Made by a program: the position numbers. A DNA stretch of 64,000 bases from an uncultured Verrucomicrobiae bacterium (GTDB taxonomy: Bacteria; Verrucomicrobiota; Verrucomicrobiia; Chthoniobacterales; UBA10450), in contig CAVYXA010000005.1 of assembly GCA_963772365.1 (NCBI GenBank), positions 192,001 through 256,000 on the forward strand, written 5' to 3'. How positions within the stretch are numbered: the stretch's first letter is position 1; each line of letters starts with the position of its first letter. Shown in pieces: positions 33,001 through 42,000 of this stretch.

Positions 33001-36000
33001 ACGGATCGGCCGGTTCGTGTTCGTTTGGTCGAGCAGGATCCATATCAAACTTATCTTTCGTGTGACGCTGGCTGAGCGGTTGTGTTGAGGGCAATTGGTT
33101 TCAAAACCCGCCAGACATTCTCCGCCAGCACCCGCTGGCCGTCCGCATTTGGATGGATGTGGTCCGGCAGATTCAACAAGGCGTTCCCTCCAACGTCTTT
33201 GAGCAGATACGGCACGAGAGCGGCGTGATTCTTTTCGGCAAGGTCAGGATACATTCGTCCGAACGCGCCGACGTAATCGTTGGCGGTGTAATTGGGAAGC
33301 TCCATCCCGCAAATCACAATGTGTACGTTCGGGTTACGCGCCTTCACCTTGTCGACGATCTCCTGAAGATTGTCTTCAATTTCGTCGATGGGGCGGCCGA
33401 GAAAAAAATCGTTGATACCCAATTCCAAAATAAAGATGTCGATCCTGTGTTTGAGATGGGGCGGTAAACGCAGCAACCCATCCGCGCTCGTCCCACCACT
33501 GGCGCTGGCGTTCGTCACTTCGTAATTCAAACCGGCAGCGCGCAGCTTGTCTGTAAGCAAGGCCGGATACGCCTGGCTCCGATCGAGACCAAAGCCAGCC
33601 GATAAACTGTCGCCGAAAATTAGGATACGCTTTGGGGCTCGCGCCGCGCTGAGCGCCAAAGTGGTTAAAAAGATAACGGAAGCGACTTTCGTGACACGCA
33701 CATCATTCAATCGACACGCAATTTCACGTTGGACGTTGCCCGCTGAGCGTTTAACCTTTTTTCCCTTTAACCCTTCAACGAATAGATTATGGCAAACTTC
33801 GGCATCAACGGCTTCGGCCGCATCGGGCGCAACGTGTTGCGCGCCATGTCACAGAAACAAGTCGAGCGCGTCAGCGCCATCAACGATCTCACTGATACAC
33901 ATACTCTCGCGCATTTGCTTAAGTGGGATTCGGTCCACGGCAAGTTCGACGGCGAGATTGGCTACGATGACGAGAACATCGTCGTGCGCGGTCACAAGAT
34001 CCGGATTTTCAAGGAACGCGACCCGGCGAATCTTCCCTGGAAGAAACTCGATGTCGATGTTGTGCTGGAATCGACCGGCTTTTTCACCGCGCGCGACAAG
34101 GCCGAGCTGCACATCAGCAAAGGCGGCGCGAAACGGGTCTTAATCAGCGCACCGGCGAAAAATCCCGACGCCACGATTTGTATCGGAATCAATGACGACG
34201 TTTACGATCCGGCCAAGCACACCATTGTTTCAAACGCGAGCTGCACGACGAATTGTCTCGCGCCGTTGGCCAAAGTAATGCACGAAAAATTTGGCGTGGC
34301 TCACGGATTCATGAGCACGATCCACAGCTACACCAATGACCAGCGAATTCTCGATCTTCCACATGATGACTTGCGGCGTGCCCGGGCGGCTGCCATCAGC
34401 ATTATCCCATCAAGCACCGGCGCGGCCAAAGCGATCGGCGAAGTGATCCCCGCGCTGAAAGGGAAACTAAATGGCGGCGCGTTTCGTGTGCCGACACCGG
34501 ATGGTTCCGTCACGGACTTCAGTGCGCTCCTAGAGAAAGATGTCACCGTCGAAGCGATCAATGCTGCGTTCAAAGAAGCTGCAGCGGACAAGAAATACAA
34601 AGGCGTTCTCGAATTCAGCGACGAACCGCTGGTCTCGCAGGATATCGTGGGCAACCCGCACTCGTGCATCTTCGACAGCAAACTCACCATCACGCTCGGC
34701 AACCGGTTCGCCAAAATCGTCGGCTGGTACGATAACGAATGGGGCTACAGCAATCGGTGCGTCGAGATGTTGGAAATGCTGGCGAAGTAGCAATCTTGAT
34801 CATGCTCGTGCTCATGATCATGATCGAAGAATGAAGACATATTTCGATCACGAGAAGCTGGATGTTTATCAGGAGGCAATCGCCTTCTGCCGCTGGGTGG
34901 GTGAGTTCATCGGCGGCATCAATGCTAGGCTTGCGGCAAAAGACCAGCTCGATCGCGCTTCCACAAGCATTCCGCTTAATATCGCCGAAGGAAACGGCAA
35001 GCTTTCTAATGCTGATCGAGCACGATTTCTGGAAATAGGACGCGGCTCCGCTCTGGAGTGTGCCGCTTGTCTGGATGTCGTCGTCGCGCGCAGACTCGCT
35101 CAGCCCGATGATATTGTTGCCGCGAAAGAGCAGCTCGTCCGTATTGTAAATATGTTGATGGGGCTGTTGAAACGCTTTTCAGGCCGCGCCGAATTCTTGC
35201 GTGAAGATGAAGCACTTTATCACATCGATCATGATCAGGATCATGAGCATGATCATGATGGGACGAGATGAGTAAACTCACCCTTCGCGATCTCAACGTG
35301 CGCGGGAAACGCGTGCTGGTGCGGGTTGATTTCAATGTTCCCACCGATGTTCACGGAGGGAAGTTTCGAATCACCGATGACACCAGAATTCGGGAGAGCT
35401 TGCCCACGATCAATTATCTTCGCGAGCACAAGGCCAAGACGATTTTGATGTCGCATTTTGGTCGGCCTAAAGGGAAACCGGTCGATAAATTTTCGCTGCG
35501 TTCAATAGGCGATCATTTGCATTCGCTCATTCATCATCCGGTGATTTTCAGCCACGACACGATCGGGAACGTGCCGAAGACAATCATCGAGTCGATGCAG
35601 GAAGGCGATGTCGCTTTGCTGGAAAATGTGCGGTTCCAGCCGGAGGAAGAAGCCAACGATCCGAAGTTTGCCGAAGCCCTGGCCAATTTGGGGGATCTTT
35701 ATGTGAATGATGCTTTTGGTACGGCGCATCGCGCTCATGCTTCGACGGCTGGCATTACGAAGTTCGTGAAGCAATCGGCGATGGGCCTGTTGATGGAAAA
35801 GGAGCTGAAATATCTGCGGGAAGAATTGACCAAACCAAAAAAACCATTCCTCGTGATCATGGGCGGCTCGAAAGTTTCCGATAAAATAGGTGTGCTCAAA
35901 GCCCTCATGGAAAAAGCTGACACCATCCTGATCGGGGGCGCGATGGCGAACACGTTTTTCAAAGCGCAGGGGATTCCGATCGGTGAAAGCCGGGTCGAGT

Positions 36001-39000: not shown

Positions 39001-42000
39001 ATCTATTTCTTCGCGTCTATTCGCGTGATTCGCGGGCCGAAAGAATAGCATGATTACACTCGGACAATACCTGATCGCCAGCGGAATTTTGTTCGCAATC
39101 GGATTTGCCGGAGTGATCCTGCGTCGAAATCTCATTGTCATTTTGATGTCGCTCGAATTGATGTTGAATGCGGCCAATCTCTCGCTGGTGGCGTTCTCCC
39201 GATTTCGTGTCGATCCAACTGGTATGCCGAATTACAACGCGCAGGTCTTCGTTTTTTTCATCATCACCGTGGCGGCGGCTGAAGTCGCCGTTGGCCTTGC
39301 CATCATCGTAGCTCTCTATCGCCTCCGCCAGACCACCGATGTAAAAGACATCAGCAGTTTGAAATTTTGAGCCCGCGAATCACGCGAATCAAAGCGAATT
39401 ATGACGGAAATCATTCATAGGAAAGAAAGTTACGCGATTATCGGGGCCTGCTTTGAGGTCTACAATGATAAGGGCTGTGGGTTTCTCGAACCGGTTTATC
39501 AGGAATGTCTCGGCATCGAATTTGAATACCAGCGGGTACCAGCGATTCCTAAACCGTTCCTCACCCTCAATTACCGTGGACGTATTTTGACACAAACTTA
39601 CGTGCCGGATTTCGTTTGCTTCGAAAAAATTATCGTTGAACTGAAAGCGGTATCGGCCCTAATCGACGAGCACCGGGCTCAGCTCCTGAATTACCTGCAC
39701 GCCACCGGCTTCGAGCTAGGCCTATTAGTGAATTTTGGCCATTACCCGAAACTTGAACATGAACGCATTGCAAAGACTCGGTACATACCACCAAAATCCG
39801 ACTTTTCAGATGTGTCTTTGTAAATTCGCGTTAATTCGCGTGATTCGCGGGTCAATCCAATGAATTCAATCTTGCCATGGATCATTCTGCTCGCGCCGCT
39901 GGTATCCGCGGTGATGATCACCGTCTTTACACTTCGCTCGAGAAAATTGAGCAGTTTCATCTCGGTCGCGGCTGTGTTCGTGAGTTTTGTCTGCAGTTGT
40001 TTGCTGTTCGTTCGAGGAAATCTTCCCGCTGTCGAGCTGAACTGGATCGACATTAGCGGCGGCCTGAGTGTTCCGCTCGGATTCCTATTAGATCAATTGA
40101 GCAAAACAATGCTCGTTCTGGTGTCGGGCGTTGGTTTGATCATTCACATTTATTCGCTCGGCTACATGCGCGGCGATGATGGCAAATCCCGCTATTTCGC
40201 CGGTCTGTCGCTCTTCATGTTCGCGATGCTCGGGATCGTCCTTTCGAACAATTTCGTCATGCTCTTTATTTTTTGGGAGCTGGTCGGCTTTACCTCCTAT
40301 TTGTTGATTGGGCATTGGTTTGAGCGGAACGCAGCTGCGGACGCCGCGAAGAAGGCTTTCATCACGACCCGAATCGGCGACTTCGGATTCATGCTGGGCA
40401 TCCTCATGATTTGGATGCCGACGGGCTCCGTGGTTTTTTCCGAACTGGCCGAGCGGATGTCGATCCTGACAGATCATCCCGCCTATGTGACTGCTGCCGC
40501 GCTTTTGATCTTTTGCGGTGCAGTTGGGAAATCGGCCCAATTTCCGCTGCACGTGTGGTTGCCCGACGCCATGGAAGGTCCGACACCGGTTTCGGCGTTG
40601 ATCCACGCCGCGACGATGGTGGCAGCGGGAGTTTACATGCTGGCGCGCGTCGGGTTCATCATTCAAACCTCGCCAGCGGCTCTCGCGGTTATCGCATGGA
40701 TTGGCACCATCACCGCGCTCATGGCCGCGTTGATGGCGACGCAGCAGGACGATATCAAACGCATCCTGGCCTATTCTACTCTCTCGCAACTTGGTTACAT
40801 GGTGATGGCAATCGGGCTGACCTCGAGCAGCGCGGCCATGTTTCACCTTTTTACCCACGCATTTTTCAAAGCGCTGCTCTTTCTCGGCGCCGGTTCGATC
40901 ATCGTTGCGCTGCATCACGAACAAGACATTTGGGAAATGGGCGGCCTTGCGCGGAATTTGAAGTTAACGTTCGTCACCTTTTTGATCGGCGGACTTGCCC
41001 TCATGGGTTGCCCACCGTTCAGCGGATTTTTCAGTAAGGATGCAATCCTGGCGCTGGCCTACGAAAAAAACATGCCGATCTTCGTGCTCGGCCTCGGCAC
41101 GGCGTTTCTGACTGCCTTTTACGCGACGCGGATGTTGGTGGTCGTGTTCTTTGGCCATCCGCGCGGGCATGCTGCGCGGGTGAGCCGGGAGTCACCGCTT
41201 GTCATGACCCTTCCCCTGATTGCGCTCGCCGGGCTCGTGATTCTGAGCAGCATCGAATCTTTCAATCAACGATTTCTTCCGCTCCCGACCGAAAGCGGGG
41301 CGTCTCGAAATGTCCTGCTATTAGCCACCGGTGCATTGGTTTTCGGTGCAGGCCTGGCGATCTTGTTTTATCGTGGGCGCGCCACCGAGGCGGTGCACGT
41401 CAATCTTCTCCGGCGCCGTTTTTACATCGACGACTTTTATCAGTGGTTGATTCACTGGACGCAGGACCTGCTCGCGCGCGTTTCAGCTTTTTTTGATCGC
41501 TGGATTATCGACGCCCTAGCCGTGCGCGGCACCAGTGGCGGAACATGGGGAATCGGTGCCGTGCTTCGGCTCATTCAGGTCGGTAATCTCCAAGCCTATG
41601 CGTTCCTGCTCGGTCTCGGCGTCATTGCCCTGATCTATTTCGCGCTGTCGGGGTAAATACGTAAGCCATGCTTTTGTTCATTATCTTCTGCCCGTTTGTG
41701 GCCGCCATTTTGATCATGGCTCGCGCGCCGGCGCGAAAGACAGCCCTGGCGGCTTCGGCGCTCACATTGATCGCCACATTATTCCTTTTTGTGACGTTCA
41801 ACAGATCGGCACCAGGTTTTGAGCACGTGACTTCATTCACAATCCTGTCCGATTGGCATTTGCGGTTCACCACGGGCATCGACGGCCTGAACGTGATCAT
41901 GATATTGCTCGCGGCCATTGTCACTGTAGCGGCTGTCTCCTTCACAAGTAAGATCGACAAGTTTGAGAACCAATTCTACGCCTGCCTTCTGTTCATATCA

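Follow-up and report, generated by a model that had tools for sequence, protein, structure and literature searches.

We consider it fairly probable that the small genes of two unrelated families found between core-operon genes in an uncultured Verrucomicrobiae bacterium are self-contained, promoterless selfish cassettes, built like the intervening sequences (IVSs) of 23S rRNA and lodged in the stop-to-start junctions of co-directional protein operons. The unit would comprise an inverted array of three to five short units, one small gene and a mirror array, with one of two cargoes, a pentamer-type four-helix-bundle protein (PF05635, IVP) or a minimal PD-(D/E)XK nuclease (PF13366, PDDEXK_3). Mobile inserts of such a build have so far been described only within ribosomal RNA genes, and our literature search found no paper describing these cassettes.

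Cassettes in the window and across the genome

The window is the whole 64,000-nt stretch of contig CAVYXA010000005.1 analyzed here. Pfam and NCBIfam give the gene order gap / IVP / pgk-tpiA / IVP / nuoI-J-K / PDDEXK_3 / nuoL, with every gene on the forward strand. The initial annotation had described small genes of two families, bracketed by inverted repeats and set between housekeeping genes; in the window this description is confirmed, with arms of 27–35 nt composed of 6–9 nt tandem units.

The first cassette lies between gap (glyceraldehyde-3-phosphate dehydrogenase; 33789..34790; Pfam Gp_dh_N, Gp_dh_C) and pgk (35268..36479; Pfam PGK). Its 5' arm of TG(A/C)TCN hexamers (34793..34827) begins 3 nt past the gap stop codon and forms, with the 3' arm (35225..35259), a 35-nt inverted repeat that is 89% complementary. 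The cargo gene, IVP1 (34831..35271; PF05635/TIGR02436; Pfam E 6e-22, and an NCBIfam match), encodes a four-helix-bundle protein; the 3' arm lies within its reading frame and codes for a (D/E)(H/Q) tail, and its stop codon overlaps the pgk start (ATGA). The hexamer arms are kept in 19/19 orthologous cassettes, among which the IVP1 core has a dN/dS of 0.11. The second cassette occupies the junction between tpiA (36412..37251 as the longest ORF, with Pfam TIM from residue 29 and a true start that is later) and a translocated nuoI-N block beginning with nuoI (37793..38329; Fer4 domains; 85–89% identity with nuoI of relatives). Its four-helix-bundle gene, IVP2 (37380..37796; PF05635/TIGR02436; Pfam E 3e-19), specifies a protein 43% identical to IVP1, and its arms of CTCTTC-like hexamers (37333..37359 and 37766..37792; 27 nt, 85%) again include a 3' arm that is in frame, here coding for an acidic tail. 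The third cassette separates nuoK (39050..39370; Pfam Oxidored_q2) from nuoL (39860..41656; Pfam Proton_antipo_N, Proton_antipo_M). Its arms (29 nt, 93%) consist of CGCGAATCA units at 39372..39400, immediately 3' of the nuoK stop, and a 3' arm at 39823..39851 that begins at the stop codon of the PDDEXK_3/GxxExxY gene (39401..39823; PF13366/TIGR04256; Pfam E 1e-37, and an NCBIfam match). Residues D70, E80 and K82 are invariant in an alignment of 45 PDDEXK_3 sequences, and an AF2 model (pLDDT 90.8) of this minimal PD-(D/E)XK nuclease fold has Cas4 SSO0001 as its top Foldseek match; this PDDEXK_3, used as a query, had zero matches among 50,697 phage records. A nuclease motif is absent from the IVP. 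The cassette proteins are under purifying selection.

Two gene-less hairpins, also on the forward strand, flank nuoJ (38417..38920; Pfam Oxidored_q3). The nuoI|nuoJ hairpin (38331..38409; arms 38331-38349/38391-38409; 19 nt, 84%; RNA fold z -3.9) carries CACAG(C/A)T-type arm units of the PDDEXK_3 kind. The nuoJ|nuoK hairpin (38928..39043; arms 38928-38961/39010-39043; 34 nt, 85%; RNA fold z -10.2) has arms almost identical to those of the PDDEXK_3 cassette 330 nt downstream, which it resembles in the arms only, and in genome G010 the same spacer holds a decayed PDDEXK_3 gene.

Across the genome, the 12 IVP and five PDDEXK_3 genes of the initial annotation were recovered as 12 PF05635 and five intact PF13366 matches, to which we add a frameshifted PDDEXK_3 gene between nuoF and nuoG (C1:1337160-1337502) that was missing from the earlier list. 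Flanking inverted repeats were likewise found on most of these 18 copies: with flanks anchored on the Pfam domains, 15/18 score at least 14, 13/18 exceed the 99.9th percentile (15.0) of 3000 random placements and 17/18 exceed the 99th (12.0), and with the gene coordinates used previously 10/17 reach 14 or more, a value that marks the 99.9th percentile of 4000 random placements. An unbiased genome-wide scan returned 12 inverted-repeat pairs whose arms are tandem-periodic and whose loop exceeds 250 nt; in eight the loop contains a gene of the IVP or PDDEXK_3 family, and another two arise by cross-pairing among the nuoJ/K/L arms. ORF and Pfam reading places 15/17 cassettes on the strand of both neighbors. 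The reported neighbors stand for sdhA|sdhB, macA|macB, metK|ahcY, cdsA|dxr, uvrD|malQ, the split hsdM and the EPS genes, but not for exbB|exbD, where the cassette lies between ExbB and a TPR protein. The genome has few gene-less copies (10). Paralogues within the genome share just 17–43% (IVP) or 33–42% (PDDEXK_3) identity, so that no pair is alike; all are thus old, which indicates no recent movement in this genome, and the copies here are old residents rather than recent insertions.

Arm units and the level at which they act

Arm sequence had been said to differ from cassette to cassette; this is not simply so, as cores are shared within each gene family. PDDEXK_3 arms are built of CRCAGATT-like units, and those of one IVP subfamily of AGTGRCN heptamers. 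The motifs CAGATT, GCAGAT and CGCAGA occur in 24–26 of 79 PDDEXK_3 5' flanks versus 1–3 of 70 control windows, and AGTGAC in 48/72 IVP flanks versus 0/51 controls, counts that are descriptive because the core motifs were picked after viewing the same loci. Cross-family counts are 0/79 and 5/72. The motif lies in the sense direction at 56 loci and the wrong way at 11, opposite polarity being seen in 11/79 PDDEXK_3 loci. Judged from these sequence comparisons, each gene family has a typical arm unit, whose orientation is set with respect to the gene. About 80% of arm complementarity is expected simply because the two arms repeat one unit; the mirror signal beyond this is modest (observed versus unit-shuffled scores of 23.1 versus 19.4 and 25.4 versus 20.9).

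Do such arms act as DNA or as RNA? One possibility, which we regard as rather unlikely, is that the arms are chiefly an RNA device: a 27–35 bp stem in the polycistronic transcript would be cut by RNase III, freeing the cassette RNA and splitting or insulating the operon message, with selection at the RNA level keeping the pairing and mobility being secondary. The architecture of the Coxiella IVS, as described in PMC4990558, is identical: an S23p/PF05635 ORF is enclosed by a terminal stem of 28 bp, which RNase III cleaves in vitro. Additionally, the minimum-energy fold predicted for each of the three window cassettes has the arms paired (32/35, 23/27 and 25/29 arm bases), the cassettes are mostly co-directional with neighboring genes (upstream gene, 55/70 PDDEXK_3 and 39/51 IVP loci; downstream gene, 60/78 and 46/52), and the arms adjoin upstream stop and downstream start codons. 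However, selection on an RNA helix should accept G-U and purge A-C mismatches, and G-U is not in excess: the G-U:A-C ratios are 20:21, 15:15, 62:92 and 97:107, or 194 versus 235 when summed, in a wobble test that had no positive control. The mismatches thus speak against a sense-RNA stem maintained by selection. Unit conservation and family specificity also exceed what pairing needs, no Rfam family matches, and the 5' arm spans the region just 5' of the cassette start codon while two 3' arms are translated, such that the stem conflicts with translation of the cassette gene. For the selfish cassettes that we favor, the arms would work chiefly as DNA, whether by folding into a hairpin or cruciform or by presenting inverted arrays of binding sites, and might be recognized by the protein encoded in the cassette itself; a stem that may also form in the transcript could lessen polar effects on the host operon. 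The predominant co-directionality with neighboring genes also fits this reading. Cassettes show no enrichment of promoter-like or terminator-like sites, and their expression would come from read-through of the host operon.

Probable movement into many spacers and decay in place

The initial annotation read these genes as mobile, and data from beyond this genome support that reading. One IVP subfamily, with AGTGRCN heptamer arms throughout, is represented by 40 loci that are 54–83% identical and lie in 17 neighbor-gene contexts; PDDEXK_3 is found at 69 loci in 54 contexts. A 495-nt block common to two Acidobacteriota genomes (loci L111 and L121; 90.5% identity) stops at the outer arm ends, with unrelated flanks on either side, and the L111 genome holds at least five copies or deletion derivatives with identical termini and 91–97% identity over the retained segments. 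As far as sequence comparison can tell, then, gene and arms move jointly into many unrelated spacers. No target-site duplication was seen, and a clean filled/empty pair was looked for among very close relatives and none obtained. There is no strand-transfer enzyme inside the cassettes and no nuclease motif in the IVP, so the two unrelated proteins would need the same route or a host factor. The nuclease family may spread by cutting followed by recombinational copying, which would be homing-like inside a spacer, with ectopic insertion elsewhere being rare.

Relatives also bear out the claims that cassettes come and go at fixed spacers, that either family can fill one spacer, and that ORF-less hairpins with such arms are found at the same spacers and at other places. 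Among 57 gap|pgk loci of the family, we found 19 orthologous IVP cassettes and one broken one, four remnants retaining the hexamer arms, six gene-less hairpins with arms of other tandem units, 12 copies of an unrelated MITE-like repeat, two further short hairpins and 13 empty sites. The metK|ahcY spacer (33 analyzable loci) holds seven PDDEXK_3 cassettes, three PDDEXK_3 deletion hairpins, three IVP cassettes and one truncated IVP whose arms differ from the PDDEXK_3 ones, and, in G012, a genome congeneric with this one, a remnant of IVP-type arms; 18 sites are empty, and the content differs even between two species of one genus. Both families have thus colonized one spacer independently. Empty sites are arm-free spacers of 0–20 nt, which indicates that the arms arrive together with the cassette. 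Internal deletions that leave both arms (L014, L054; L249, L252, L257; L281, L283, L285) show that cassettes decay in situ into gene-less hairpins.

Could these instead be immobile, useful host genes, inserted once per site long ago and since inherited vertically with repeated loss, the hairpins being local regulatory or stabilizing structures? The low dN/dS of the gap|pgk IVP, whose orthologues span many genera (19 genomes), the low identity of in-genome paralogues and the numerous, independent decay products all fit such a scenario; indeed, the retention of this IVP over many genera under purifying selection is also compatible with a host-beneficial gene. We nevertheless hold the scenario to be improbable: it does not accommodate a gene-plus-arm unit in 17 and 54 unrelated contexts, the block common to two genomes in different contexts, the five or more copies of 91–97% identity in one genome, or the presence at metK|ahcY of two unrelated families with different arms, where even congeneric species differ. 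Additionally, gap|pgk presence requires 18 changes on a (weak) Gap+Pgk tree, no fewer than the shuffled mean of 18.5.

Highly improbable, in our judgment, is an integron-like route, in which the arms of an excised circle would fuse into an attC-like hairpin, and the circle would enter stop-start junctions through a tyrosine recombinase that works on folded single strands. Each unit does carry one promoterless gene, arm structure is kept though sequences vary, and in a Terriglobia genome the right and left ends of copies at L283 and L285 lie head to tail with the same 7 nt between them. The arms, however, are symmetrical about the gene rather than at its 3' end, the cassettes are single and scattered through operons rather than arrayed beside an integrase (no search was aimed at an integron integrase), and unit motifs follow the cargo family, for which a shared integrase would not account.

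Relation to known systems

Several known systems share features with the selfish cassettes proposed here. Integron cassettes, which have attC at one end only and form arrays beside intI, likewise pair a single promoterless ORF, served by an outside promoter, with an imperfect inverted repeat conserved in structure and not sequence; here, by contrast, arms stand on both sides of the gene, sites are scattered and units track the cargo. REP/BIME elements with RAYT (REPtrons) also place a small gene between inverted short repeats, scatter gene-less hairpins through intergenic spacers of the same genome and tie repeat sequence to the associated gene lineage. RAYT belongs to the Y1 HUH transposases of the IS200/IS605 kind and REPs are single palindromes, whereas here the cargo is a four-helix bundle or a PD-(D/E)XK nuclease, the arms are tandem-unit arrays, and the few gene-less copies are in many cases visibly deletion products. 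The free-standing homing endonuclease genes of phage (T4 seg/mob; intron-less homing) are comparable in being small nuclease genes between conserved genes, patchy at the same site among relatives and free of target duplication; we know of no flanking hairpin arms on them, and the IVP family lacks a nuclease fold. PF05635 also resembles Avd, the accessory protein of diversity-generating retroelements (DGRs), according to PMC10053308, and the macA|macB IVP matches phrog_3206, 'Avd protein of DGR' (E 8e-8). However, no PF00078 reverse transcriptase was found anywhere in this 90%-complete genome, and 0/12 IVP genes have a reverse transcriptase neighbor.

The nearest known system, and an obvious relative that the initial annotation did not name, is the ORF-bearing IVS of 23S rRNA, known in Coxiella burnetii and Leptospira (PMC4990558). 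As that paper describes it, the IVS is a unit of ∼430–500 nt with one PF05635 (S23p/IVP) ORF and terminal inverted repeats of ∼28 bp, sporadic in distribution as the present cassettes are; the Coxiella stem is cleaved by RNase III in vitro, the IVS is considered there to be a selfish element whose origin is unknown, and its ORF was proposed to serve mobility (Ralph and McClelland 1993, via PMC4990558). The cassettes described here differ in that their arms are inverted arrays of family-specific 6–10 nt tandem units whose mismatches carry no RNA-type wobble bias, and in that gene-less derivatives are common. They also accommodate, within the same build, a second and unrelated cargo, the PD-(D/E)XK nuclease, and they reside in intercistronic spacers of protein operons rather than in an rRNA helix, a location that makes excision unnecessary for host function.

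Cassettes and gene-less hairpins in the window

Three small genes lie in spacers between housekeeping genes, all of them on the + strand. The IVP gene of cassette 1 (34831–35271; PF05635/TIGR02436) is placed between gap (33789–34790) and pgk (35268–36479), with its stop codon overlapping the start of pgk; the IVP gene of cassette 2 (37380–37796; PF05635/TIGR02436) follows tpiA, which ends at 37251, and precedes nuoI and nuoJ, which lead up to nuoK (39050–39370); and the PDDEXK_3 gene of cassette 3 (39401–39823; PF13366/TIGR04256) stands between nuoK and nuoL (39860–41656), after which comes nuoM. 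Pfam identifies gap, pgk and tpiA. The arms of cassette 1 (34793–34827 and 35225–35259; 35 nt, 89% complementary) are made of TG(A/C)TCN hexamers, those of cassette 2 (37333–37359 and 37766–37792; 27 nt, 85% complementary) of CTCTTC hexamers, and those of cassette 3 (39372–39400 and 39823–39851; 29 nt, 93% complementary) of CGCGAATCA 9-mers. In both IVP cassettes of the window, the 3' arm lies within the ORF and codes for a low-complexity tail (HIDHDQDHEHDHD; DEEEAEEED), and both of these translated arms consist of hexamer units, so that their period is divisible by three.

Two hairpins without a gene accompany the cassettes. One, in the nuoJ|nuoK spacer (38928–39043), has arms that are nearly the same as in the PDDEXK_3 cassette, which lies at a distance of 330 nt, and the other, in nuoI|nuoJ (38331–38409), has arms of CACAGAT-like units. 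The flank of the nuoJ|nuoK hairpin was also considered as a copy of the end of nuoK; judging from relatives, the similarity most likely reflects old orthology. The 5' and 3' arms pair in the predicted RNA folds of all three cassettes of the window, involving 32/35, 23/27 and 25/29 arm bases. Rfam returned zero family matches at E ≤0.1 within 33000–42500, which speaks against a known RNA family in that interval. Neither promoter-like sites (5 vs 5.2 expected) nor terminator-like sites (12 vs 11.2 expected) are in excess in the window, and none of either kind is found at a cassette border.

The cassette proteins of the window clear the curated family cut-offs by a wide margin. The two window IVPs score 78.3 and 69.6 bits against PF05635 (cut-off 33.8) and 72.9 and 64.0 bits against TIGR02436 (cut-off 24), and a profile of 12 IVP copies matches PDB entries 2GSC (E 1e-28) and 2RLD (E 1e-27), the former of which is described in a section of PMC4990558 as a homopentamer of four-helix bundles. 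The window PDDEXK_3 protein scores 129 bits against PF13366 (cut-off 22) and 126.7 bits against TIGR04256 (cut-off 35), and a 45-sequence alignment of this family has G27, E30, Y33, D70, E80 and K82 invariant, i.e. the GxxExxY and D...ExK motifs. A sequence search found no solved structure among its relatives. Its AlphaFold model is confident (pLDDT 90.8), and the top PDB fold matches of that model, Cas4 SSO0001 (E 1.6e-4, TM 0.49–0.55) and lambda-exonuclease-type nucleases, point to a nuclease-like fold; the function of the family is listed as unknown in the part of PMC3424549 that concerns it. Searches of Pfam, NCBIfam, PADLOC and PHROG place the cassette proteins outside known transposase families, with PDDEXK_3 having a nuclease fold only. 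A role as defence genes was rejected because the PADLOC models gave 0 families for five proteins at E ≤0.01.

Copies across the source genome and its relatives

The source genome (3.35 Mb, six contigs, 90% complete) contains 12 matches to PF05635 above cut-off and, for PF13366, five intact genes plus a frameshifted sixth. Bacteroides thetaiotaomicron, a cultivable species, gave a match as the control for PF05635. The initial annotation had counted 17 copies; its 12 IVP and five PDDEXK_3 genes stand, but the frameshifted gene in nuoF|nuoG (L078, C1:1337160–1337502), whose AGCAGGAA arms are intact with an inverted-repeat (IR) score of 24, was missing from its list. All 18 copies are located between or inside protein-coding genes, and the descriptions of 15/17 cassettes as lying on the same strand as both neighbours, and of most neighbours as housekeeping genes, were borne out. 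With windows anchored on the Pfam domain, the flank-IR score is at least 14 in 15/18 copies and at least 12 in 17/18, as compared with 99th and 99.9th percentiles of 12.0 and 15.0 for 3000 random placements of the same geometry. Windows anchored on the originally annotated gene coordinates give a score of at least 14 in 10/17, a lower count because some arms fall inside annotated ORFs. When the genome was scanned without bias for inverted repeats whose arms are tandem-periodic, 12 pairs had a loop of >250 nt: eight of them surround an IVP or PDDEXK_3 gene, two arise from arms of nuoJ/K/L pairing crosswise and two are of other kinds. The same scan recovered ten gene-less hairpins with tandem-periodic arms, two of which have the arm sequence, but not the loop, of a cassette that carries a gene at another place in the genome. 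The pattern is genuine and exceeds chance by far. Paralogues are 17–43% (IVP) and 33–42% (PDDEXK_3) identical to the window copies, and the paralogues in the source genome are old, with no recent movement there.

Several individual loci of this genome deserve mention. An IVP cassette (L069, C1:1420409–1420786) lies between fragments of hsdM, with HsdM_N and the start of N6_Mtase upstream and a middle piece of N6_Mtase downstream, and interrupts a gene instead of occupying a spacer. At C3:792340–792760, extended GGTCGAG heptamer arrays, together with their complement, enclose ∼240 nt with no IVP or PDDEXK_3 ORF; the locus may represent a cassette that has decayed completely. The genome has its nuo operon in two parts: nuoH is on contig C1 (L277, 1339370–1340400), with a MITE-like hairpin and a nadA-like gene behind it, and nuoI–N come after tpiA on contig C5, where the IVP2 cassette coincides exactly with the tpiA/nuoI–N junction (37252–37796); in the relative G035, nuoH and nuoI lie side by side. 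Another cassette that falls on a synteny break is L280 (genome G062 compared with G061). A second nuoH homologue on contig C3 (L278, C3:377163–378104) suggests a second complex I operon.

The gap|pgk spacer was followed through 57 loci, obtained by a DNA search of 60 same-family genomes and from fetched regions; one genome, G055, gives two loci, and three loci come from genomes flagged as unpublished (L023 from G014, L050 from G007 and L062 from G002). Orthologous IVP cassettes occupy the spacer at 19/57 loci, with 63–77% protein identity to IVP1 and hexamer arms throughout (IR score 15.5–27.5), and one further locus has a broken IVP. Four loci retain hexamer-arm remnants: in L014 the 5' arm and 14 codons are joined to the 3' arm, in L054 ∼28 codons are kept, and L046 and L051 have one arm each. 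Gene-less hairpins with GGAGTRRT 8-mer arms are present at five loci (L031 from G012, a genome of the same genus as the source, and L027, L035, L044 and L058), and no gene-bearing cassette with such arms was seen; one more gene-less hairpin has GACAGGATT arms, and two loci have other hairpins. Copies or fragments of an unrelated MITE-like repeat fill 12 loci (including L023, L036, L041, L047, L052, L055, L057 and L060–L062), and the remaining 13 are empty, with a spacer of ≤20 nt, e.g. TAATG. The unrelated repeat has GTCATCCCGAG...CTCGGAATGAC-type ends and is also found after nuoH in the source genome (L277:2530–2640).

Among the gap|pgk orthologues, the median dN/dS of the IVP1 core is 0.11 (37 pairs with dS <3, dS being near saturation), and the IVP core is under purifying selection; the arm-encoded tails are different in each genome. 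On a Gap+Pgk tree, the presence of a cassette or remnant (24/57 tips) requires 18 changes, as many as with shuffled labels (mean 18.5), and IVP and host (Gap+Pgk) distances correlate at r = 0.12. Since the tree has about one genome per genus and is built from two proteins, it is uninformative on gain versus loss, i.e. on repeated loss versus lateral replacement.

The metK|ahcY spacer (38 loci, 33 analysable) was colonised independently by both families, as it holds PDDEXK_3 in some genomes and IVP with other arms in others. PDDEXK_3 cassettes with CRCAGATT arms are found at 7/33 loci, and internal-deletion products that keep both arms at three (L249, L252 and L257, with three different breakpoints). 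Three loci hold an IVP cassette and one a truncated IVP (genomes G003, G024, G036 and G013), with CTTTAAG or TTCAGRK heptamer arms quite unlike the PDDEXK_3 arms of the same spacer; an 83-nt remnant of CTTAAG-type arms is left in G012, and 18/33 loci are empty. Relatives have PDDEXK_3 genes, or what remains of them, in their nuo operon at nuoJ|nuoK (G010), nuoK|nuoL (several genomes) and nuoL|nuoM (G035), and the nuo spacers of G015 are empty. Three claims of the initial annotation hold up in these comparisons: that cassettes come and go at fixed spacers, as gap|pgk and metK|ahcY are each filled, reduced to remnants or empty among relatives; that either family can occupy the same spacer (metK|ahcY); and that ORF-less hairpins occur as well, being present in gap|pgk, metK|ahcY, nuoI|nuoJ and nuoJ|nuoK.

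Mobility as a unit and the nature of the arms

Wider samples were drawn for both families. A pattern scan of one-genome-per-species contigs gave 80 PDDEXK_3 loci from many phyla, the nearest named one being from a Chthoniobacterales MAG and another (L138) from the cultivable Flavobacterium gawalongense, and a metagenome scan with the macA|macB IVP protein gave 80 IVP loci, which represent a single subfamily because this one protein served as query. Where enough flank is available, the IR score is at least 15 in 67/79 PDDEXK_3 and 67/72 IVP loci. Neighbours are largely co-directional, both for PDDEXK_3 (55/70 upstream, 60/78 downstream) and for IVP (39/51 upstream, 46/52 downstream). Members of the IVP subfamily (54–83% identity) always have AGTGRCN heptamer arms and sit in very varied gene pairs (80 neighbour proteins at 40 loci), for example HlyD|ABC, FtsX|FtsX, aldehyde dehydrogenase|amidohydrolase, hydantoinase A|B, hexapeptide transferase or Mrp|HisS, HisS|AspS, FliH|FliI, sigma-54 activator|DUF4126 and URO-D|URO-D. 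Grouped by neighbour homology, 40 IVP loci fall into 17 contexts and 69 PDDEXK_3 loci into 54. Relatives of PDDEXK_3 are also present on seven plasmid or chromid records. Phage cargo as the identity of the cassettes was rejected after a tblastn search with the window PDDEXK_3 gave no match in a phage collection.

Among loci that differ in context, L111 and L121 from two Acidobacteriota MAGs (94% protein identity) are the closest pair and share a block of 495 nt at 90.5% identity, whose limits are the outer ends of the arms and whose flanks are unrelated; no direct repeat is seen at the block, which in L121 starts 4 nt past a stop codon and ends 3 nt ahead of a start codon. The L111 genome has four further copies on other contigs, all of them deletion derivatives with the same termini and 91–97% identity over the retained segments, the exception being L281 with its more diverged right end, and one derivative occupies a site that holds a full copy in the other genome. 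The L111-type element thus behaves as a recently active element with MITE-like derivatives. Comparison with the sister genome found no clean empty site for it; the corresponding sites show a synteny break, an unrelated 430-aa ORF, and a full copy opposite an 82-nt remnant. A different idea is that the hairpin is a pre-existing landing pad, with the gene dropped into its loop; this was rejected, as empty sites are spacers of 0–20 nt without arms, and it is also contradicted by the arms being inside the block common to L111 and L121. The PDDEXK_3 cassette of the Terriglobia MAG G062 (L280, L281, L283, L285 and L286) has its 5' arm and initial codons a second time downstream of the stop, and two loci each have a right and a left end in head-to-tail order with the same 7 nt between them, which hints at possible tandem or circular forms.

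The arms had been described as differing in sequence from cassette to cassette, and this has to be revised: they are not arbitrary, cross-locus pairing is high, and the cores are family-specific. When a 5' arm is aligned with the 3' arm of another locus, the median score is 16 for IVP (true pairs 23) and 10 for PDDEXK_3 (true pairs 22). The top 6-mers in PDDEXK_3 5' flanks, CAGATT, GCAGAT and CGCAGA, occur in 24–26/79 loci vs 1–3/70 control windows, followed by CACGAA and CGAATT, and AGTGAC occurs in 48/72 IVP flanks vs 0/51 controls. The core CRC[ACG]RA is found at least twice in 56/79 PDDEXK_3 5' flanks and mirrored in 53/79 3' flanks, as compared with 11 (5') and 24 (3') loci in the wrong orientation and 5/72 IVP loci, and the core AGTGR is found in 61/72 (5') and 59/72 (3') IVP flanks and in 0/79 PDDEXK_3 loci, counts that are descriptive because the cores were picked after viewing the same loci. 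In the source genome, 4/6 PDDEXK_3 copies have the core at least three times per side. Eleven of the 79 PDDEXK_3 loci (L131, L153 and nine others) have the opposite unit polarity, with ATCTGYG upstream and CRCAGAT downstream. The unit period is 9–10 in PDDEXK_3 and 7 in the IVP subfamily, with modal numbers of three and four cores per arm, and most arm complementarity is explained by the two arms consisting of the same repeated unit. When the unit order is shuffled, the score drops only from 23.1 to 19.4 and from 25.4 to 20.9, with 21/24 and 45/50 loci above their own shuffled mean; for the gap|pgk orthologues, whose genomes are kin, a locus's own 3' arm is in the top six of 19 partners for 17/19 loci.

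Are the arms maintained as RNA or as DNA? Selection on a sense RNA predicts more G-U than A-C mismatches. The numbers of G-U vs A-C mismatches, in a test run without a positive control, are 20 vs 21 in the source genome, 15 vs 15 in the gap|pgk orthologues, 62 vs 92 in the PDDEXK_3 loci and 97 vs 107 in the IVP loci. There is no G-U excess, which argues for arms that act at the DNA level or are renewed by copying, and against a selected RNA helix like that of an rRNA intervening sequence (IVS); a role as RNA is the less likely alternative.

Significance and comparison with known systems

The initial reading, in which single-gene cassettes with hairpin arms built from repeats are mobile, is supported, and four points sharpen it: family-specific arms, mobility as a unit with defined ends, recent spread in one genome and the lack of an RNA wobble signature. 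Tentatively, and with more doubt than confidence, we entertain a broader proposal, namely that the cassettes form a class of bacterial mobile element that is widespread and so far undescribed, with ORF-bearing rRNA IVSs as a long-known special case. The ends, inverted arrays of short units, would be recognition sites for the cassette's own small protein, which would be either a ring-forming four-helix bundle reading 3–5 repeats or a minimal PD-(D/E)XK nuclease; movement would proceed via a DNA hairpin or cruciform intermediate, with neither a classical transposase nor target duplication; the targets would be stop–start junctions of transcribed operons; and the short tandem-repeat hairpins of many bacterial spacers would be leftovers of cassettes.

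PF05635 and PF13366 are large families without known function that are annotated many times per genome in several phyla. If both families prove to be carried by a single kind of hairpin-armed cassette, they gain a testable role, i.e. recognising their own repeat units. Such a result would explain the origin of gene-bearing rRNA IVSs, a question that part of PMC4990558 traces as open since the 1990s, and also where some of the tandem-repeat hairpins in intercistronic spacers come from. IVP genes inside cas or other operons need not then belong to those systems: 18 such genes inside cas operons, one of them between cmr3 and cmr2, were read as CRISPR-associated in sections of PMC3936711 that do not mention repeats. 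If the route of mobility is new, it would add a mechanism with no need of a classical transposase.

No account of hairpin-armed cassettes in the spacers of operons came up in a full-text search of the literature accessible without subscription. IS and MITE elements share terminal inverted repeats with the cassettes and differ in target-site duplication, of which none is visible at six L111-type copies or 20 IVP loci. Integron cassettes have attC at the 3' end only and form arrays beside intI, whereas here arms bracket the gene and copies are single and scattered. One IVP matches the PHROG entry 'Avd protein of DGR', and PF05635 is linked to Avd in a passage of PMC10053308; a DGR, however, needs an adjacent reverse transcriptase and template/variable repeats, and the neighbours here are housekeeping genes. 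A DGR accessory (Avd) role was rejected because the genome has no match to reverse transcriptase PF00078 anywhere. With free-standing homing endonuclease genes, PDDEXK_3 appears to share only a conserved catalytic triad and a patchy same-site distribution. The closest likeness is to rRNA IVSs. The Coxiella IVS, as portrayed in part of PMC4990558, has 428 nt, an S23p ORF and a 28-bp terminal stem and is cut by RNase III in vitro, and the same source recalls old ideas of IVSs as transposition remnants or mobile elements; 23S_rRNA_IVP ORFs are also reported from rRNA insertions of CPR bacteria in a portion of PMC11270868. Like these IVSs, the cassettes have terminal inverted repeats that can form a long stem around an ORF; unlike them, they do not sit in a helix of a 23S or 16S rRNA gene, 18/18 copies here being between or within protein-coding genes. 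The cassettes are best regarded as the ORF-bearing rRNA IVS generalised to protein operons, with a second cargo family added.
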